Of a stretch of DNA of 64,000 bases, positions 25,293 through 62,243 are shown one piece after another (position 1 is the first letter of the stretch; the number at the start of each line of letters is the position of its first letter). The position numbers and the translations under genes are program-made. The DNA is taken from the sequence record MK327934.1; one strand, given 5' to 3'. Source of the stretch: Escherichia phage vB_EcoM_G2469. Below the pieces are notes generated by a model. That model searched no databases. It was not told where the DNA came from and saw nothing but the letters and a program-made list of their open reading frames with translations.

Positions 25293-25331
25293 TTTATTCT
25301 CCAGATGTTTAAGTTGTTTGTTGGTACAGGT

Positions 25332-25362
25332 CTATAATAACATAACCTGTACCAAAGTAAAC
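25332..25362 (-). promoter_or_regulatory. early-type promoter with 9-bp inverted repeat bracketing the -10
   Basis: TGGTACAGG-tctataataacataa-CCTGTACCA then GTAAAC. Confidence 0.45.
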
Positions 25363-25835: not shown

Positions 25836-25853
25836 CGCACAAAAGGGAGACCG
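25836..25853 (-). terminator. terminator hairpin
   Basis: GGGAGAC-CGAA-GTCTCCC followed by UUUUG on minus strand. Confidence 0.55.
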
Positions 25854-25867
25854 AAGTCTCCCTAAAA

Positions 25868-27382: not shown

Positions 27383-27953
27383 AAAAGTTTCGGATTTGTT
27401 CCCAATTCAGAGAACGAAGATTATTACGAGAGTACTGAATTACTTCAATGCCGGCTTGTTTTAGAATGTCTGCCCAATTTTCAGGAGATCTGTCATATAA
27501 TTCTGCGTATACAACCTTTTTAATACCTGACTGCGTAATAGCTTTAGTGCAATCAGGACATGGAGAAAGCGTCGTATACAACGTAGCACCTTCAATAGAA
27601 TTACCTTTACGAGCTGCAAACAAAATTGCATTCAATTCAGCATGGATTTCGTTATTAGCAGACCATGCACTATGAGCGGCCCGATGTTCTTTAGCCAAAA
27701 CAAAATTATCCACCCGTCCAAATGCTGTAGTGCCTTCTTTATGCCCAGCAACGATGACCGGGCTTGGTTTATTCTTCAACCAACCGTTTTCGGATGCATG
27801 TTCGCAACAGTTTGTACCACCTGAAGGAGAGCCATTATACCCTGTAGAAATAATGCGTCCATCTTTTTCAATGACGGCGCCAACTTTCCATGAACAACAT
27901 TTTGATTCTTGAGAAATCAGATAAGCAATCTGAAGATATGTGCTAGCTTTCAT
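27372..27953 (-). CDS. cd: dCMP deaminase
   Basis: 193 aa; zinc-binding HAELNA and PCPDC motifs. Confidence 0.9.
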   Translation of the reverse strand: MKASTYLQIAYLISQESKCCSWKVGAVIEKDGRIISTGYNGSPSGGTNCCEHASENGWLKNKPSPVIVAGHKEGTTAFGRVDNFVLAKEHRAAHSAWSANNEIHAELNAILFAARKGNSIEGATLYTTLSPCPDCTKAITQSGIKKVVYAELYDRSPENWADILKQAGIEVIQYSRNNLRSLNWEQIRNFCGE

Positions 27954-28945
27954 TATTGAACCTTATTAATATAAGTTAACAGCTCTTTAGTTTGTTCCCA
28001 ACTGATGCACGCATCGGTAATGGAAACGCCATAGGACATATTATCAGAAATTTTTTGATTTCCTTCATGTAGGAATGATTCTATCATAATTCCTTTGACC
28101 AAATCATTAGCTGCTAAATTTTTACCAATACCAATTTGATTGCTATAATGCCCAGCAGCGTTTGCATGGCTACAGTCAACCATTACATAATGATTCATAC
28201 CTACTGCACTTGCTTTGTTAGAAGCTTCTTGAATATCAGAAGAATGATAGTTCGGGCCGTTGGTCCCGCCACGCAATACGATATGCGTATTCTGATTACC
28301 TTCAGCTTCAACAATGCCTACAGTACCATCGACGTCCATACCCATATACCGATGAGGCCTGGCGGCACTATACATCGCGTCTGTAGCTACTTTAATAGAA
28401 CCATTGGTTGCGTTCTTGAAGCCTACGCACATCGGTAGACCTGAAGCAATTTCACGATGTGTCTGACTTTCAGTCGTACGGGCGCCAATAGCAACCCATG
28501 AGAAAATACCAGAAAGATACTTAATCGTGAATGGGTCTAATACTTCAGTTGCTAATGGAAGTCCCATACGTAGAAGTTTACGACACAATGTTCGTGCAAC
28601 TATAAGACCGTGGTTCATATCAAAACTTCCGTCAAGATATGGATCATTTACAAGACCTTTCCAACCTACGGTAGTTCGAGGCTTTTCAAAATAAACGCGC
28701 ATCACTAACAGAACATTAGGAAGACGAGTTTGAAGTTCAGCCAGACGTTTGCCGTATTCAACAGCAGCAATAGGGTCATGAATTGAACAAGGACCTACAA
28801 CAATAAGTTTGCGTGGGTCTTCACCGTTCATAATCGAATTAACTTGTTCGCGATGAGAAGCCACTTGTGATGCGTAAGCTTCCGACAAAGGAATAATCTC
28901 AGCCAGTTCTTTTGGAGAAATAAGTTTTCTGACGACAGGTAACAT
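27953..28945 (-). CDS. 3-deoxy-D-arabino-heptulosonate-7-phosphate (DAHP) synthase, class I (AroG/AroF/AroH-like)
   Basis: 330 aa; motifs GPCSIHD, KPRTTVGWKG, GARTTESQTHRE, DCSHANA, IESFLHEGNQ, SITDACI align with E. coli AroG. Confidence 0.85.
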   Translation of the reverse strand: MLPVVRKLISPKELAEIIPLSEAYASQVASHREQVNSIMNGEDPRKLIVVGPCSIHDPIAAVEYGKRLAELQTRLPNVLLVMRVYFEKPRTTVGWKGLVNDPYLDGSFDMNHGLIVARTLCRKLLRMGLPLATEVLDPFTIKYLSGIFSWVAIGARTTESQTHREIASGLPMCVGFKNATNGSIKVATDAMYSAARPHRYMGMDVDGTVGIVEAEGNQNTHIVLRGGTNGPNYHSSDIQEASNKASAVGMNHYVMVDCSHANAAGHYSNQIGIGKNLAANDLVKGIMIESFLHEGNQKISDNMSYGVSITDACISWEQTKELLTYINKVQ

Positions 28946-29302: not shown

Positions 29303-29329
29303 TTCTATTTCCTCATTTGTTGGTAGAGT

Positions 29330-29360
29330 TATAGTATCACAACTCCACCATGTTGTAAAC
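29330..29360 (-). promoter_or_regulatory. early-type promoter
   Basis: TATAGTA ... GTAAAC. Confidence 0.45.
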
Positions 29361-31128: not shown

Positions 31129-31129
<1 letters not shown>

Positions 31130-31428
31130 TATTTTATTCCTAAGAAAGTTTCAAGAATACGAATGTTATGCTCGCGCCGGTCTTTATTAATTTCAGCAAC
31201 GTTTTTATTAATTGACGTACTTCTAACGTTTGAAGAAATAAATTTAATCATATGACTTTTGAGTTGTTGCAAATCCAACCCTTTTTCTTTAGCAGCTTTA
31301 CGAAGAGCTTTACCTGCTTCATCTAGTGCCTTTGCTGTATCTTTGTCATAATTGACAAGTGTCATTCCACGACAGATATCAATATACTCATCAGACCGTT
31401 TGATGTAATTCTCTAGTAATGTTTTCAT
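31129..31428 (-). CDS. hypothetical protein (99 aa)
   Basis: ORF with upstream early promoter. Confidence 0.45.
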
Positions 31429-31485
31429 TTAGATTTCCTCAATTATCCATAGGAGCATTATACTCTGCTCCCACGAGTTTGTAAA

Positions 31486-34028: not shown

Positions 34029-34075
34029 TCAGTTAGTTTTTTTTAAATTGTACCACAATCCTTGTGGTATGTAAA

Positions 34076-35015: not shown

Positions 35016-36106
35016 CGTTATGTTCGATTGAGCTCGCTAATTCTCAACCCGTTCTCTTATGAACTGCTACATATTACTATGCAGACCAGACTATATCACA
35101 ATCCCAGAGGGATTCTCCCCATTTCGAGTCGCTTGACCCTACGTCCGAAGACTAGTCGTTGAACCTTGCTTTGCAATTGTCGCCGTGCCATCGTTTATAT
35201 GTTGATGGTGATAAATCTTTCTTATCACAATATGGACAATTCAATTGAATTCTATTTGGATTTAATTTACATCTGTCATTATGTTTTAGATAAAATCCAG
35301 GACCTTTACCAATGTGACCGCAGAAATCACATGTGATTTCTTTTTGTGCAGGATGGGTCCCGTTCTTAACCATTTCTAATGTTTTTGCTGATGTTCTTTT
35401 CTTATGGTCTTCTGACAAGAAATGATGTGAACCGTCATTTACCCGTTTTGATTGAGTTTCTGACTGCATTTTACCACCGCAAAATACATGAGTACCTTCT
35501 TTTATAGCTGCAATATTGCGTTCTTTAACTTTTGCAATATGCTCAGCTTGTTGAAAATTATGTATACCTAATGCAACTCTATTTAAATTAGATTTACGCT
35601 GTATTTCACCGTCTAAAAGATGAAATGTACCATTTTCTATCTTAGATTTAATAGAGGCAATATTTTTAGCTCGTACTTCAGGGATATTAAAAATCTGGAT
35701 TTCTCTAGATTTTGCGGCTTTAGAAGCTAATTCAGAAATTTCTTCAGGAGAATATTTCATTCTAAGCTTTATAGCATGACAAGCCTGGTAATCTTTTTGA
35801 GCTAAATGTATATCATAATGTTCCTGTATAGAAAGGCACATCAAATTATCTAAATCATTATTTTCACGGTTACCGTCTTTATGATGGATTTCGTATGTTC
35901 TTCCATCAGAATCTTTAGGTATAGGTCCGTTAGCATCTATCCAAATTTTTCTATAGTTCAATTGTGCATCCTCTTAAAAGTATAATCATATTTATATTAT
36001 ACTAATTAAAGGTGCAAGCAAAACCTTGGCTGCTAGTTTTCCTATAAAGGACTTTCCAGCAATTAAAGGAGTTTTCGATAAACGTTACCGTTTAAAGGCG
36101 CATTTT
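35016..36106 (-). mobile_element. group I intron in nrdB (about 1091 nt) carrying I-TevIII
   Basis: exon 1 frame stops immediately after ...RFYVSFA; 3' region shares core (TCGAGTCACTTGACCCTAC...GAACATAA(C/T)G) with the td intron; proposed junctions follow 5'-exon U and terminal G rules. Confidence 0.75.
35152..35961 (-). CDS. I-TevIII: I-TevIII HNH homing endonuclease, full length (269 aa)
   Basis: HNH motif EIHHKDGNRENNDLDNL, C-terminal Cys-rich zinc finger; apparent TTG start after AAGAGGA RBS. Confidence 0.85.
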   Translation of the reverse strand: MNYRKIWIDANGPIPKDSDGRTYEIHHKDGNRENNDLDNLMCLSIQEHYDIHLAQKDYQACHAIKLRMKYSPEEISELASKAAKSREIQIFNIPEVRAKNIASIKSKIENGTFHLLDGEIQRKSNLNRVALGIHNFQQAEHIAKVKERNIAAIKEGTHVFCGGKMQSETQSKRVNDGSHHFLSEDHKKRTSAKTLEMVKNGTHPAQKEITCDFCGHIGKGPGFYLKHNDRCKLNPNRIQLNCPYCDKKDLSPSTYKRWHGDNCKARFND

Positions 36107-39435: not shown

Positions 39436-39747
39436 TTATACCGCCATTTTAGCTTTGATAGCTGGATGTGATTCGTAATTTTTAAGAACGAAATCAGAAT
39501 GTGTCATTGTTCCAGTAACCCAGTCCATTTGGATTTTTGTAGGCCAATTCTCAAAATTACTAGGCCAATTAATTTCAAGAGAACATAACTCTTTAGGTTC
39601 ACGACGAAGAACTTCTTTGCATTGTTCTACATGATTGCGGTAGATATGCGTGTTGCCGCCTGAGAACACTAAATCACCTGGGATAAGGTTACACATCTTC
39701 GCTACAATATGCGTCAAGGCAGCGTAAGAGGCAATGTTGAACGGTAG
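39436..39747 (-). CDS. td: thymidylate synthase, exon 2
   Basis: begins CTACCGTTCAAC (LPFNIASY...) immediately after intron terminal ...CATAATG. Confidence 0.9.
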   Translation of the reverse strand, partial: LPFNIASYAALTHIVAKMCNLIPGDLVFSGGNTHIYRNHVEQCKEVLRREPKELCSLEINWPSNFENWPTKIQMDWVTGTMTHSDFVLKNYESHPAIKAKMAV

Positions 39748-40763
39748 CATTATGTTCAGATAAGGTCGTTAATCTTATCCCGGAATTATATCCAGCTGCA
39801 TGTCACCATGCAGAGCAGACTATATCTCCAACTTGTTAAAGCAAGTTGTCTATCGTTTCGAGTCACTTGACCCTACTCCCTAAAGGGATAGTCGTTAGGC
39901 ATTTATGTAGAACCAATTCCACTTATCAGATTTTACACGGTAAGTAACTAATCCTGATGAAATTTCAAAATGTCTAGCCGCATCGGCTGCACATTCAAAA
40001 ATAATCCCATCGCATGAAATCTTTTTGATGTTAGCTGGCTTTTTGCCTTTCATCTTTTCAGATAGTTTAGTTTTAGTTTTTTCTGAATGTTTGTGATTAA
40101 AGAACGGGTTATTTTCACCTGAACGTTTTCGGCACTTTCCACAAGTATCGGCCGAAGATGGTATGCGAACACCGCATTTACAAAACTTGTGGTTTTCTGG
40201 ATTCCATCGGCCATTTTTACTTCCGTGTTTACCATAAAGAGCTTTCCGACCATCAGGACCAAGCTTAAGCATCTTAACTTTAACAGTTTCAGCTCGTTTC
40301 TTAGCAATTTCTTCTTTTAATGGATGATTTGAAAGCACATCGCCAAAAGACGCATCAGCAATATTATATCCATTAATTTTAGAATTTAGCTCTTTAATCC
40401 AAAAATTTTCTCGTTCAATAATCAAATCTTTCTCATACGGAATTTCTTCCAGTACAGAGCATTCAAAAACATTACCATGTTTATTAAAAGACCTTTGAAA
40501 TTTTATAGAAGAGTGAACACCGTTTTCAAGGTCTTTAAAATGTCTCTTCCATCTTTTCTCAAAATCTTTAGCACTTCCAACATACACTTTACCGTTTAAA
40601 GTGTTTTTAATCTGATAAATTCCGCTTTTCATAAACACCTCTTTTTATATAGAAGTATTTATTAAAGGGTAGTCCTACAATTTAGCACGGGATTGTCTAC
40701 TAGAGAGGTCCCCCGTTTAGATAGATTACAAGTATAAGTCACCTTATACCTAGGCCTAAATTA
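39748..40763 (-). mobile_element. group I intron in td (1016 nt) carrying I-TevI
   Basis: 5' end TAATTTAGGCCTAGGTATAAGGTGACTTATACTTGTAATCTATCTAAACGGGG and 3' end ...CTGAACATAATG match the T4 td intron; same length as T4. Confidence 0.9.
39895..40632 (-). CDS. I-TevI: I-TevI GIY-YIG homing endonuclease
   Basis: 245 aa MKSGIYQIKNTLNGKVYVGSAKDFEKRWKRHF..., near-identical to T4 I-TevI. Confidence 0.92.
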   Translation of the reverse strand: MKSGIYQIKNTLNGKVYVGSAKDFEKRWKRHFKDLENGVHSSIKFQRSFNKHGNVFECSVLEEIPYEKDLIIERENFWIKELNSKINGYNIADASFGDVLSNHPLKEEIAKKRAETVKVKMLKLGPDGRKALYGKHGSKNGRWNPENHKFCKCGVRIPSSADTCGKCRKRSGENNPFFNHKHSEKTKTKLSEKMKGKKPANIKKISCDGIIFECAADAARHFEISSGLVTYRVKSDKWNWFYINA

Positions 40764-41312
40764 ACCTAAGAAAACATCTACACTGCGTTGATACCATTGT
40801 AAATCAAGATGTCCATTACGCACATTAAATTGATAGAACATATGACAAGGAGGAAGAGCCATTTGGTCAATTTCGGCTGGGTTCCATGCAGAAACTATTT
40901 GACGACGATCATTAGGAAGAGCTTTAATGCGGTCGATAGTTTTGACCAATTGGTCTACACCACCAAAATCACGCCATTGCTTACCATAAATAGGACCAAG
41001 TTCGCCGCTATGATATCCAAGGTCTTTTGCCTGATTTTCATAGTTGTCGTCCCAAATAGTTTTACCTTGAATAAGACTACCATGAGTACGAATACGCAAA
41101 TCATTAACATTGGTAGAACCAGACATGAACCACAGTAACTCGGCAATACAAGCTTTCCATGCTAATTTCTTAGTTGTTACTGCAGGAAATCCTTTAGTAA
41201 GGTCCCAACGTAATTTAGTTCCGAACAGGGCAATAGTGCCGGTACCTGTACGGTCGTCTGTTTCGTAGCCATTTTCTAAGATATCTTTAATCAGGTATTG
41301 GTATTGTTTCAT
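40764..41312 (-). CDS. td: thymidylate synthase, exon 1
   Basis: MKQYQYLIKDILENG...QRSVDVFLG followed directly by intron. Confidence 0.92.
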
Positions 41313-41896
41313 TTATATACGCTCTCAGTAATTTCGGTGAGTTCATCGATTCTGTAGTAATGAGATTCTACCATAGAACGTTGAAGCATAATATCTTGGA
41401 CGAAATCTTTATCAAGTTGAACATCGGAATTAACACGACATTTCTTAATGATTTTAGTCATCACGATTTCATCGGCATAAGGCAGTGCTTGTTTAAGTAG
41501 AGCAGGACCGCCGATAACAGATACATTAACATGTTCAGTAGAAAGTTTAAACGGTACATCAGTTGCAGGGCTAAACAGGTTAATTTCATCACCTGTTACC
41601 AAGGTAATAAATTCTGCTTGGGTGATATAGAACCGTGCAAGTTCATCAGTTTTAGTCCTAGGCAGTTTTCTGGCCATATCAGTGACAACCACATGAGTAC
41701 GATCTGGGAGTAGACGAGGTAATGATTCAAAAGTCTTAGCACCCATAACCATTACAGTGTTTTTAGTGCGAGCAACAAAGTTACTCATATCTTGTTTGAT
41801 ATGCTTCCATGGAAGTCCATCACCTAATCCAAAAGCATATTCCAGTTTATCATCAACCGTTTTAGATGGTGCGCATGCGAATACTAATTTAAGCAT
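41309..41896 (-). CDS. frd: dihydrofolate reductase
   Basis: 195 aa from ATG (MLKLVFACAPSK...), ATGA overlap with td start. Confidence 0.9.
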   Translation of the reverse strand: MLKLVFACAPSKTVDDKLEYAFGLGDGLPWKHIKQDMSNFVARTKNTVMVMGAKTFESLPRLLPDRTHVVVTDMARKLPRTKTDELARFYITQAEFITLVTGDEINLFSPATDVPFKLSTEHVNVSVIGGPALLKQALPYADEIVMTKIIKKCRVNSDVQLDKDFVQDIMLQRSMVESHYYRIDELTEITESVYK

Positions 41897-42137
41897 TTTT
41901 AAGTCCTTTAATAACTTTTTGGATTTGTGATTTAGAAGAAACCAAATCAGTCTGGATTTGACAACCGTCGGTAGAGTCAAATACTATAACACAAACACGA
42001 GGTTTTGTTGTGTATCGCCCAGACAAATCAAATGCGTCGCCAATGAATTCGGCCAAATCCGGATGGTCTAAATTAACTGAAGTATAAACTTCATATCCGA
42101 CATCAGCGCCTTGAGAGTATTCAACAACAACATTCAT
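41889..42137 (-). CDS. hypothetical protein (82 aa, frd.1-like)
   Basis: ORF. Confidence 0.45.
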   Translation of the reverse strand: MNVVVEYSQGADVGYEVYTSVNLDHPDLAEFIGDAFDLSGRYTTKPRVCVIVFDSTDGCQIQTDLVSSKSQIQKVIKGLKNA

Positions 42138-42139
42138 AA

Positions 42140-42388
42140 TTATTTCCTCAGATTTTTCTTAACAACTTTCCAATCAACTTTAAACGATTCAACATCAGAG
42201 TGGTGAATCCAGAATCCTGCACTTTCACCATCTTCGTAGAGTGGACATCCATCGCATTCTTCGTTCCAACCCATTTCACGTAAAGCTTCTTCAGCTTGTT
42301 CAAGGAGTTCAGCGTCTTTACCAACGATGTTGAAGTACCATTTACCTCTAACTTCTGAATCTTTGATGCTCTGGCGTTGCAATCTCAT
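42140..42388 (-). CDS. hypothetical protein (82 aa, frd.2-like)
   Basis: ORF. Confidence 0.45.
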   Translation of the reverse strand: MRLQRQSIKDSEVRGKWYFNIVGKDAELLEQAEEALREMGWNEECDGCPLYEDGESAGFWIHHSDVESFKVDWKVVKKNLRK

Positions 42389-42414: not shown

Positions 42415-42452
42415 GATAGGGCTACTATAACATAGCCCTATCTTGTTATAAA
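42415..42452 (-). promoter_or_regulatory. early-type promoter whose -10 lies in the loop of a perfect 10-bp inverted repeat
   Basis: GATAGGGCTA-ctataaca-TAGCCCTATC then TTGTTATAAAC. Confidence 0.4.
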
Positions 42453-42845
42453 CTACTTTTTAAAAGTTTTTTGCAAAAGTTTGATGATTTCGTCGACGTT
42501 AGTTTCATCTACGATACAATGGATTTTTGTTACACCTAAAGTTATACCTTCGTTAGTAGGTTGAGGCTTTACTAAATCTACCTCAGTAAAGTATTTGAAC
42601 TCGTCAGGATAAATCTCAAAATAAGTTTCAATTTCACCACCGGCAGAACATACAGTACCATCTTCCATAGTTACACTTACTACGTTTGACGTATCGCTAT
42701 CATAATCAGGTTCCATTCCGTTTACAACAAAACTAGGCCCGTGGAGTTCAATCAATTTTAACATCTTAGCGTTATTATGTGGTGCTTCTTGAACAAAGTC
42801 GTCTTTAAATAAAGGGTTAATGATATAAGATTTTCCGATTTCCAT
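42453..42845 (-). CDS. hypothetical protein (130 aa, frd.3-like)
   Basis: ORF with upstream early promoter. Confidence 0.45.
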   Translation of the reverse strand: MEIGKSYIINPLFKDDFVQEAPHNNAKMLKLIELHGPSFVVNGMEPDYDSDTSNVVSVTMEDGTVCSAGGEIETYFEIYPDEFKYFTEVDLVKPQPTNEGITLGVTKIHCIVDETNVDEIIKLLQKTFKK

Positions 42846-42934
42846 TTTGATTTCCTCATGTTGTTGATAGGTCTATACTAACACATCCAGGGAAGAAGTA
42901 AACAACTTTTTCGGCAATTTACAGATACTCAAAA

Positions 42935-42952
42935 GGGAGACCGAAGTCTCCC
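42935..42952 (-). terminator. terminator hairpin after gene 32
   Basis: GGGAGAC-CGAA-GTCTCCC followed by UUUUGAG on minus strand. Confidence 0.55.
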
Positions 42953-51253: not shown

Positions 51254-51277
51254 GGGAGACTTCGGTCTCCCATTTTT
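51254..51277 (+). terminator. intrinsic terminator after gene 35
   Basis: GGGAGAC-TTCG-GTCTCCC followed by ATTTTTG. Confidence 0.6.
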
Positions 51278-60937: not shown

Positions 60938-61384
60938 TTAGTAACTCTGCAGAATGAATTTGAAATTATCAGCCAGAAGACGGTTCATTTCAGTGAGTGT
61001 TTGATATTCTGATGTATGATTGCGAGTGAATGCCAGAGCCAATTGTCCTTTACCATAACCAGTAGTCAGTGGTTTCATGTTCTTAGCTGCAACAAAGATT
61101 ACATCATATTCAATATTGTTAGTGCCCATGGTACGGGCTAGTTGCGAACGGCCTTGACGAATGTGAGAAAGAATTGCATCCAACCCCTGTTTAGAACGTT
61201 GACGTCCTACAAAGAATCGTGCTGCTACTTGTCGCCAATCAGATGAACCTTTAACAAAGAAGTAAAAACCTTCGCGAGAACGAAACTCTTTAGAAACTTC
61301 AGAACCGTATTCGCCATTACGAACTACTGCAACAACTTCACCGCCAACTGCCAGAAGGTCTTTACGAGTTAAATATTTGGACAT
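60938..61384 (-). CDS. ndd: Ndd nucleoid disruption protein
   Basis: 148 aa, C-terminal ...[16 protein letters not shown] as T4 Ndd. Confidence 0.8.
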
Positions 61385-61460
61385 GCTAATTTCCTCAATT
61401 GATTAATGTTTTTGTAATCCATGAGAGCATTATACTCCGCTCTCAAGAGTTTGTACAATT

Positions 61461-61661
61461 TTATTCGGCCATATCAGAACGTTCAAAAAGCTCTTCAACA
61501 GTTAAACATTCAGTGTCATCTTCAATAAAGAATCGAGTCCAACACGTTGGGGCGATACAGTTATGAGTTTGTCCGGCGATAGAAGCTACACGAATAAGCT
61601 GCTGACCGTTATTCAGAACAAATTTTTCACCAATTTCAACATCTTTAAAAAGCTTAGCCAT
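61461..61661 (-). CDS. hypothetical protein (66 aa)
   Basis: ORF with upstream early promoter. Confidence 0.45.
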   Translation of the reverse strand: MAKLFKDVEIGEKFVLNNGQQLIRVASIAGQTHNCIAPTCWTRFFIEDDTECLTVEELFERSDMAE

Positions 61662-61721
61662 TTTGTGTTCCTCATGTTTCAGTAGGACTACTATACCATA
61701 ATCCTACCTTGTTGTAAACAA

Positions 61722-61832
61722 TTAAATTACATTAAAATATGTTAAAGCCAACCATGTTCCAGTGAACGAACATGCGATGTAAAACCACGCATCACAAATT
61801 GTTCTTAGTACAATAAGAAGTGCATTTTTCAT
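61722..61832 (-). CDS. possible small membrane peptide (36 aa)
   Basis: hand-translated MKNALLIVLRTICDAWFYIACSFTGTWLALTYFNVI with GAGGT RBS; coordinates +/-1. Confidence 0.35.
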   Translation of the reverse strand: MKNALLIVLRTICDAWFYIACSFTGTWLALTYFNVI

Positions 61833-61911
61833 AAGTACCTCAACACAATTGAAAATATTATACAAATCATTGGGATACTAAGCAACCATATTCCTATCCA
61901 CATTTTAGAGC

Positions 61912-62175
61912 TCATATCTCAACTTCCGCGAGTTCCATATATCCTTTGTTGATAACCTCTTTAAGGTCTTTAGAAAGAATAACACCAAAATGGTCGTTCA
62001 TATGTCCGTTAACTAAACGAGTTATTTCGGCTTCAGATGACATATAAGGCACGTCCGAGTCCCAGTGAGATAGGCCTAAATGGGTATAAATCATCCCTTC
62101 GTCATCTGCAGTGTTGTACATTGAAACAAATTCGCCTGTTACTTTATGTTTTGCGTAGAAAAATTTAAATTTCAT
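61912..62175 (-). CDS. hypothetical protein (87 aa)
   Basis: ORF with upstream early promoter. Confidence 0.45.
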   Translation of the reverse strand: MKFKFFYAKHKVTGEFVSMYNTADDEGMIYTHLGLSHWDSDVPYMSSEAEITRLVNGHMNDHFGVILSKDLKEVINKGYMELAEVEI

Positions 62176-62243
62176 GATGTTATCCTCTTTTAGATAGGAC
62201 TACTATATCATAGTCCTACTTAGTTGTAAACACTTTTGTGAAA

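Follow-up and report, generated by a model that had tools for sequence, protein, structure and literature searches.

The palindrome at 42415-42452 belongs to a set of PeSL (promoter-early stem-loop) cassettes of T4-like phages, elements that are real, ordinary for this group of phages and already known, and the pairing of their stems is under selection. We analysed a 64,000-nucleotide stretch of Escherichia phage vB_EcoM_G2469 (MK327934.1), referred to here as the window, which contains seven such cassettes on predicted early promoters. The reading that we favour, with a probability of roughly 0.7 for the whole of it, is that each cassette combines a promoter with a hairpin that forms in read-through RNA, that the cassettes make small genes into self-contained expression units and that they act as homology patches for gene swapping. 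The first-pass annotation of this DNA was right about the promoters, the enclosed -10 and the RNA hairpin; its operator does not agree with the data below, and the published PeSL class had gone unrecognised. PeSLs, published in 2010 and 2014, explain how dozens of tiny accessory genes can exist as self-contained units that are gained, lost or swapped without disturbing their neighbours, and the window adds to this RB69-like phages with a dense set of the -10-straddling subclass on T-even promoters, together with comparative evidence that selection maintains pairing on the sense strand.

The focal element and its genomic setting

The window comes from an RB69-like (Mosigvirus) T-even phage and its gene order is collinear with that of RB69 from about gene 21 to rIIB. 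Over 3 kb around the focal site the window is 98.4% identical to Escherichia phage vB_EcoM_WFbE185 (Mosigvirus), and the locus is matched by hundreds of T-even phages, with roughly 800 matching genomes. The early genes, which include 30.x, cd, pseT, nrd, td, frd, 32, ndd and denB, are on the minus strand, so the focal site has to be read as its reverse complement; flanking genes were named by synteny and Pfam. The minus strand of the site shows G-TTTATA, then a spacer of 17 nt with TGT at its end, and then TATAGT. The perfect 10-bp palindrome reported for 42415-42442 is present, with arms GATAGGGCTA/TAGCCCTATC and an 8-nt loop, and the parts of the element are as follows.

42415-42452, minus strand: focal PeSL, between a frd.2-like ORF (42453-42845) and the frd.1/DUF5417 ORF (42140-42388)
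42452-42447, minus strand: -35, TTTATA
42442-42432, minus strand: 5' arm, occupying the spacer
42429-42424, minus strand: TGn and -10, TATAGT
42425-42415, minus strand: 3' arm, from the last base of the -10 to about +3
about 42417, minus strand: estimated +1

The stop codon of the upstream ORF, TAG, directly adjoins the -35, the product of the downstream ORF matches Pfam DUF5417, and the RNA folds at -18.7 kcal/mol (z = -7.9 against dinucleotide shuffles). GenBank records of relatives annotate the same site, in one case with a putative terminator (ARNOLD) and in another with an overlapping T4-type early promoter and terminator.

Immediately after frd.1, at 41889-42137 on the minus strand, lies an extra 82-aa ORF without a counterpart in RB69. 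Pfam gives no match for it, and it is dissimilar to its neighbour frd.1, which has the same length; RB69ORF245c, in turn, is absent from the window at about 42843-42868. In T4-like phages (T4, phage Lutter) frd.1 is preceded by a hydrophobic mini-ORF of 23 codons (MFAPYIMAAVMLVCLYLLIKAC), placed after the frd.2|frd.1 hairpin promoter, and a second promoter is annotated at the mini-ORF region in the Lutter record; the window has neither the mini-ORF nor the second promoter.

Hairpin promoters across the window

Promoters were scanned for without regard to hairpins, as a T4-type -35, a spacer of 16-18 nt and a -10, followed by a Shine-Dalgarno sequence (SD) and ATG. The scan of the 64-kb window gave 16 predicted early-type promoters of the G-TTTACA-N17-TAnnAT type on the minus strand, and seven of them have a bracketing stem, one arm of which is in the spacer and the other just past the -10. 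With a bracketing stem defined as a score of at least 7 in the bracket geometry, and the expectation derived from every window position, 0.59 such promoters would be expected (binomial P = 7.6e-7). Shuffling of the spacer and downstream bases with the hexamers fixed gave z-scores of -3.3 to -7.7, and dinucleotide shuffles of the seven elements, which fold at -13.2 to -19.7 kcal/mol, gave -2.6 to -7.9. The bracketing stem is absent from the other nine promoters, in line with the earlier remark that not all early promoters in this DNA have the palindromes; two of these nine (34075 and 32891) contain a short stem entirely within the spacer. The six further PeSLs of the bracket type, and the promoter at 34075 with its stem in another position, are listed below.

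25316-25362, minus strand: PeSL between the 30.8 and 30.7 homologs; -35 TTTACT 25361-25356, -10 TATTAT 25339-25334
29321-29359, minus strand: PeSL between the cd.3 and cd.2 homologs, orthologous to T4 early promoter Pe133295; -35 29359-29354, 5' arm 29350-29338, -10 TACTAT 29336-29331, 3' arm 29333-29321
31447-31485, minus strand: PeSL, family B, upstream of a 99-aa ORF (31129-31428) that is an RB69ORF231c homolog; -35 31485-31480, 5' arm 31476-31466, -10 TATAAT 31462-31457, 3' arm 31457-31447
34047-34075, minus strand: early promoter upstream of rnlA with another stem position; 8-bp stem TACCACAA/TTGTGGTA (34069-34051)
61412-61458, minus strand: PeSL, family B, between ndd.1 and ndd (60938-61384); -35 TGTACA 61457-61452, -10 TATAAT 61434-61429, core arms TGAGAGC/GCTCTCA 61445-61439 and 61428-61422
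61681-61718, minus strand: PeSL, family A, upstream of ndd.1 (61461-61661); -35 61718-61713, 5' arm 61708-61698, -10 TATAGT 61695-61690, 3' arm 61691-61681
62194-62230, minus strand: PeSL, family A, between denB and the RB69ORF270c homolog (61912-62175); -35 62230-62225, 5' arm 62219-62210, -10 TATAGT 62207-62202, 3' arm 62203-62194

The first-pass annotation had listed the focal site and those at 25322-25354, 62197-62218 and 61684-61706. All four are real, and reading the minus strand bears out at each of them that inverted repeats enclose or overlap the -10 of an early-type promoter, although three further sites of the same kind (31447-31485, 29321-29359 and 61412-61457) had been missed. On that strand the four consist of G-TTTA(C/T)A, a spacer of 17 nt with TGn and then TATAGT or TATTAT, and in each the 3' arm extends from the final -10 base to around +3. 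Some arms are longer than had been given. The palindrome said to have 9 bp at 25322-25354 has perfect 11-bp arms at 25355-25345 and 25331-25321 around a 13-nt loop, folds at -19.7 kcal/mol (z = -5.0) and is identical in its stem in RB69, JS98 and T4. The palindrome AGGACTA/TAGTCCT has arms of 8 bp, not 7, at 62195-62218 and the element folds at -13.2 kcal/mol (z = -2.6), and GTAGGA/TCCTAC is found at about 61681-61708, where G.U pairs extend the 6-bp core to 11 pairs (eight Watson-Crick and three G.U). The folding energies are -13.7 kcal/mol (z = -3.5) at 61412-61458, -16.9 kcal/mol (z = -3.9) at 31447-31485 and -16.9 kcal/mol (z = -4.8) at 29321-29359, where the -10 is partly within the 3' arm. 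The stem at 34047-34075 is inside the spacer and touches the -10; this promoter belongs to another PeSL subclass and not to the bracket type.

According to the T4 record, the 14 nt at T4 133300-133313, in the stretch that separates cd.2 from cd.3, had originally been published as their inverted complement, and early promoter Pe133295 is regained once this is corrected. In the T4 ortholog of the 29359 element these bases form the loop region, with an arm on either side, and the inversion could be either an old sequencing artefact at the hairpin or a real inversion of the loop.

The anatomy of the seven predicted promoters is uniform in several respects. They read G-T(T/G)TA(C/T)(A/T), a spacer of 16-17 nt and TA(T/C)(A/T)(A/G)T, with a strict TGn extended -10 in five of the seven and GAG in its place in the two family B elements; the 20 nt that precede them have an A+T content of 65-90%. 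In all seven the 5' arm lies in the spacer and the 3' arm just past the -10 or overlapping it, so that the -10 is in the loop or in the 3' arm; the main stems have 10-13 pairs and the loops range from 4 to 13 nt across the elements. All are intergenic: 0-15 nt separate the upstream stop codon from the -35, and the SD and ATG follow the -10 at a distance of 32-50 nt. The SD, some 16-20 nt past the 3' arm, is left free by the structure, and translational masking is ruled out for this reason.

Seven copies in the 64-kb window compare with 15 in the 144.5 kb of RB69. Family A comprises the elements at 42452, 61718 and 62230 in the window and at least nine copies in RB69, and family B has three copies, two of them in the window (31485 and 61457). 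The same arrangement is found in JS98 and, less frequently, in T4. A search of the whole window on both strands gave no Rfam match at gathering score. At promoters that have no 5' arm (RB69 72316 and 58101, and stem-less ones in the window such as 59149) TATAGTAGTCCTA or TATTATAGACCTATCAAAACAA still follows the -10, and this conserved discriminator and initial-transcribed region is common to stem-bearing and stem-less T-even early promoters; some of the stem-less promoters may be decayed half-PeSLs.

Conservation of pairing and preference for the sense strand

Orthologs of the focal element, that is, of the promoter upstream of the frd.1 (DUF5417) gene, were taken from relatives in a set of about 20 sequences, 16 of them distinct; the search of relatives with the frd.1 protein gave 11 loci. 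The sequences come from Mosigvirus, Tequatrovirus (including T4), Dhakavirus, Gelderlandvirus and a Klebsiella phage, which makes at least four genera. Conservation in related phages had been named as a check on the palindromes, and here all 16 distinct orthologs keep the hairpin, at -14.7 to -19.1 kcal/mol, though the sequence of the stem changes: it is GATAGGGCTA/TAGCCCTATC in the window, GGGTAGTAGT/ACTATTACCC in T4, AGGCTATGGTA/TACTATAGCCT in JS98 and GGAGCTATGCT/AGTATAGCTCC in the Klebsiella phage. The register of the stem moves by one base between lineages, and in most other genera the -10 of the ortholog is in the 3' arm and not in the loop.

Pairing is also retained between copies within a genome. 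Family A occurs with the variants GGGC/GCCC, GGAC/GTCC and GGAT/GTCC, and family B with GGGAGC/GCTCC and GAGAGC/GCTCTC. In an alignment of 16 same-geometry copies from the window and RB69, 91.9% of cells pair, compared with 33-53% when the partner is slid by 1-3 columns, changes on both sides occur in eight of the ten pairs, and the covariation score of 0.524 (0.249 in shuffles) was reached by none of 500 shuffles, statistics that are inflated by shared descent because the copies are related (two close genomes, with five window sequences that near-duplicate those of RB69). RB69 spacers joined to their own downstream region fold at a mean of -14.2 kcal/mol, whereas the same spacers joined to the downstream region of another hairpin promoter give -8.3 kcal/mol, and -6.3 kcal/mol between different arm cores (P = 8e-6). 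The 3' arm is near a consensus (TAGTCCTATCAA / ATAGACCTATCAA) that is also present at stem-less early promoters, and we therefore take the spacer to be fitted to the 3' arm and not vice versa.

That consensus, together with the lack of a stem at over half of the early promoters, would fit a stem that has no function and is a by-product of promoter duplication or inversion, or of chance, at a site where only the promoter matters. We regard this as extremely improbable in view of the strong excess over chance, the survival of the hairpin through sequence turnover in 16 orthologs, the compensatory changes, the match of spacers to their own arms and the strand bias that follows.

The stem positions that are not Watson-Crick are mainly G.T on the gene-sense strand. 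A plain count in RB69 stems (six G.T and three A.C positions) is too small to decide, and sense and antisense folding energies, with stem-less promoters as controls, were used in its place. The sense hairpin is the more stable one in all seven window elements, for instance -13.6 vs -6.3 kcal/mol at 61681-61718 and -16.9 vs -9.1 kcal/mol at 31447-31485, with -16.9 vs -8.1 kcal/mol as one further pair. The same holds for all 16 focal orthologs and for 14 of the 15 RB69 hairpin promoters, as against 7 of the 29 stem-less controls (Fisher P = 1.4e-5).

These results bear on the candidate operator of the first-pass annotation, in which a dimeric early protein of the phage would bind the palindrome over the -10 as duplex DNA and shut the promoter off. 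The palindrome does overlap the -10 and the start site, and family A (GATAGGRCTA...TAGYCCTATC) has at least nine near-identical copies in RB69; to our knowledge, the mechanism by which T4 early promoters are shut off is not fully settled, which counts in favour of an operator. A DNA-binding protein was also speculated on by Arbiol et al. (PMC2839356). Against this, at least four unrelated stem sequences share one geometry and not a recognition sequence with dyad symmetry, the loop length varies from 4 to 13 nt, and orthologs change in sequence and register, with concerted changes in the half-sites that keep the pairing. The G.T positions break the dyad symmetry of the DNA and are consistently oriented in favour of the sense strand, and a protein site in duplex DNA has no reason to favour one strand. 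An operator is therefore very unlikely.

Terminators on the plus strand, which would put an end to late or spurious transcription that opposes the early genes, represent another possibility. The antisense tails are U-rich (UUGUUGUAAAC), with four to six U in the first 8 nt compared with one to three on the sense side, and the consensus terminator scan flags 42415-42442 as terminator-like on the plus strand only. The U-richness follows automatically from the promoter consensus, as the tail is the reverse complement of the spacer and -35, and G and A break up the tails. At seven of seven sites the antisense hairpin is the weaker one, in some cases near background (-6.3, -8.1 and -9.1 kcal/mol; z = -0.5 to -1.9), and this also applies to 14 of 15 RB69 copies and 16 of 16 orthologs; because of these weaker stems we rank antisense termination low and consider it decidedly improbable.

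On the sense strand the predicted start, 7 nt past the -10, lies within the 3' arm at all seven elements, which means that RNA from the embedded promoter cannot form the hairpin and that only read-through RNA from upstream can. Stable read-through hairpins without a U-tract had been predicted for these sites, and the folding energies given above support them: no U-tract is present on the sense strand at the seven hairpins (one to three U in the first 8 nt of the tail), and the terminator scan of the minus strand did not call them. The phage has hairpin-plus-U terminators elsewhere, as in the following example, which is an annotated terminator in a relative.

42935-42952, minus strand: canonical intrinsic terminator after gene 32, GGGAGAC-UUCG-GUCUCCC and then UUUUGAGU

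Since the seven hairpins have no such U-tract, efficient intrinsic termination at them is doubtful, and the terminator role assumed for these elements in T-even phages is putative. The G/C-rich tetraloop hairpin (A/T)GGGAGAC-UUCG/CGAA-GUCUCCC is itself a second repeated intergenic element, distinct from PeSLs, with at least four copies (2755-2774, 25844-25863, 42935-42952 and 51254-51271); of these, at least the one at 42935-42952 has runs of A and T on its two sides, which make it a canonical terminator that may work in both directions.

Processing by RNase III, for which the hairpins in polycistronic early RNA would be the sites, had also been raised, and an intercistronic hairpin without a U-tract would be compatible with it. 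RNase III requires a helix of about 20 bp (about two helical turns), and as the main helices here are just 10-13 bp, including G.U pairs, the idea is unsupported and has practically no chance of being correct. In a review of T4 mRNA decay the enzymes named are RNase E, RegB, RNase LS and 3' exonucleases, and RNase III does not appear at all (PMC3014915).

We propose instead that the cassette acts through the RNA that is read into it from upstream. In each cassette a predicted host-sigma70 early promoter, which would be a strong one, lies directly past the stop codon of a small accessory gene, about 30-50 nt before the next start, and its spacer is tuned to pair with the conserved bases that follow the -10. 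Polymerase arriving from a more distant upstream start would transcribe both arms, and its RNA would fold into a 10-13 bp hairpin after the upstream cistron; the hairpin may attenuate or pause read-through, block 3'-to-5' exonucleases, or both, and the 3' end of the upstream message would be set in this way. RNA from the embedded promoter, which is without the 5' arm, would be unstructured, and each small gene would become a self-contained expression cassette. For the T-even hairpins we infer attenuation or termination of upstream transcription, and for Term-seq, TSS and long-read transcript-boundary data on T4-like phages nothing usable was found in the literature. It is unlikely, in our view, that the bracket-type hairpin of T-even phages is other than a plain attenuator, whether as a stop or processing signal that depends on a phage or host factor and not on a U-tract, or as a site of structure-specific recombination for cassette exchange. 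If it were, the complementarity of spacer and discriminator would be selected so that the same 40 nt distinguish read-through RNA, folded and ended, from local RNA, unfolded, and the element would be a factor-dependent insulator that also marks the boundaries of mobile gene cassettes.

Relation to published PeSLs and to gene exchange

PeSLs were defined by Arbiol et al. in 2010 in RB49 and phi1, at about 50 copies per genome, as a strong early promoter with a stem-loop between an upstream stop codon and a downstream SD/ATG, mostly in hyperplastic regions before ORFans (PMC2839356). One of them promoted lacZ at about 13,000 Miller units, the stem-loop of one RB49 PeSL lowered lacZ read-through about as much as rrnB T1, and mini-circles between neighbouring PeSLs were detected in both phages (PMC2839356). 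Comeau et al. (2014) extended the class to T4/PST, and also to nt-1/KVP40, with a T4/PST promoter consensus of TTTACW-N17-TAYWAT and a stem AGNA-loop-TCNT, and used the ndd-denB hyperplastic block as a worked example of PeSL-linked gene exchange (PMC4122927). Analogous elements with T4 early promoters and stem-loops at internal-protein loci are attributed to Repoila et al. (1994) in PMC2839356.

As far as can be judged from sequence, the window elements have what defines a PeSL: a predicted sigma70-type promoter, a stem-loop, an intergenic position and multiple copies. They resemble the RB49 and phi1 PeSLs (PMC2839356) in their sigma70-type early promoter, AT-rich upstream region, stem-loop, small accessory genes downstream and many copies. 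The RB49 elements have G/C-rich stems (GGGG...CCCC) and near-perfect TTGACA/TATAAT promoters (PMC2839356), whereas those of the window have T-even promoters (G-TTTACA, TGn, TATAGT/TACTAT) and more AT-rich stems with G.U pairs; the termination assay was made solely on a G/C-rich RB49 stem and not on a T-even stem (PMC2839356). Like the T4/PST elements, they fit both the promoter and the stem consensus (AGGA...TCCT) and occur in the ndd-denB block (PMC4122927). According to the legend of Fig. 3 in that paper, the PST stems are just upstream of the promoter (PMC4122927), in contrast to the window arms, which straddle the -10. Five stem positions are described for PeSLs, the commonest being between -35 and -10 or over the -10 (PMC2839356), and the bracket geometry on T-even promoters may be without explicit mention in print. 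Neither PeSL paper mentions RB69-like phages (PMC2839356, PMC4122927). The elements of Repoila et al. (1994), as portrayed in PMC2839356, are similar in having T4-type promoters and weaker, AT-rich stem-loops that flank highly variable small genes, and RB69 has three bracket elements at ipI and neighbouring internal-protein genes.

The design is comparable to that of T4 gene e and other lysis genes, where the DNA that encodes the 5' strand of an RNA structure also contains the promoter, so that long transcripts fold and local ones do not (PMC3014915); there the promoter is late and the structure hides the ribosome-binding site (PMC3014915), unlike the unsequestered SD of the window elements. 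As stable intercistronic RNA hairpins just past a stop codon they are also like intrinsic terminators and 3' stabiliser hairpins (REP elements), and they differ from intrinsic terminators in having no U-tract on the sense strand. Hairpin promoters of the N4 type have stems of 5-7 bp and 3-nt loops and are read by a virion RNA polymerase; they were ruled out as an analogue, the window promoters being ordinary sigma70 promoters with the -10 in a loop of 8-13 nt.

All copies precede small accessory or ORFan genes, and stem-less early promoters are found in similar regions. Those of the 15 hairpin promoters in RB69 stand before ipI and further internal-protein genes, ORFans 133-136, ndd, ndd.1, ORF270c and frd.1, with further sites at sp, nrdC.8, 55.2, 30.7 and ORF231c. 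From the literature and one breakpoint in the window, it appears that the repeated cassettes of about 40 nt could serve as homology patches for swaps of accessory genes between phages. Homology between the window and T4 passes through denB and ends at 62225, within the -35/spacer of the 62230 element, beyond which the genes are unrelated (the ORF270c homolog in the window, ndd.6 to ndd.2 in T4). At the focal site of relatives the element and frd.1 are constant and the upstream gene is frd.2, frd.3 or another ORF. Indel breakpoints between the window and RB69 would be expected on the elements, but none of nine is on a bracket element and the nearest are 300-450 nt away; a recombination role is for this reason supported here by one clear junction only, and the support for the elements as recombination linkers is mixed.

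It has to be considered whether the DNA hairpin or cruciform is itself functional, as a structure-specific recombination or nicking site through which cassettes are excised and inserted as mini-circles, the RNA hairpin being incidental. The mini-circles of RB49 and phi1 and the GGGC/GCCC inverted repeats cited at T4 deletion endpoints (PMC2839356) are in agreement with this, the focal stem having GGGC...GCCC. The homology breakpoint inside the 62230 element also agrees, and single-stranded DNA hairpins tolerate G.T mismatches, so that the sense bias would be compatible with the non-template strand. Cruciform extrusion is, however, unfavourable with loops of 8-13 nt, no dedicated recombinase is known, the window-RB69 breakpoints are off the elements, and the exact identity of the neighbouring copies 61718 and 62230, direct copies at a distance of 512 bp, is just 13 nt; we judge a functional DNA structure to be improbable. 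Under the preferred reading, that of a promoter with a read-through RNA hairpin, the cassettes would enter exchange as repeated homology.

The ORF270c homolog and the 61718 element are separated by a gap of 250 nt (61722-61888), in which the sole ORF has 47 codons and a TTG start. A 63-nt stretch there is 78% identical to the T4 ndd.6/ndd.5 region and may be what is left of small membrane-protein genes, which T4 has at this position.

Insertions relative to RB69 were seen at other places in the window. The td gene (39436-41374) is split by an insertion of about 1 kb, located at 39747-40765 relative to RB69, which encodes an I-TevI-like GIY-YIG endonuclease (ORF 39895-40638; Pfam GIY-YIG, I-TevI_ZnF and I-TevI_DNA-bd). 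The region 39436-41374 aligns end to end with the intron-containing td of T4 at 83% identity, td is uninterrupted in RB69 and in the closest relative WFbE185, and a group I intron at td had no Rfam match at gathering score. On the minus strand at 27953-28945, in a 1.1-kb insertion between the cd and cd.2 homologs that is absent from RB69, a 330-aa ORF that Pfam places in the DAHP synthetase I family (E = 2e-75) looks like an auxiliary gene of sugar or aromatic metabolism. A further 1.1-kb insertion with respect to RB69, in the denA/nrdB region, holds a 269-aa ORF with an HNH_3 endonuclease domain (35152-35961, minus strand), probably a free-standing homing endonuclease, which also has a weak match to the FlgM family (E = 9e-6).
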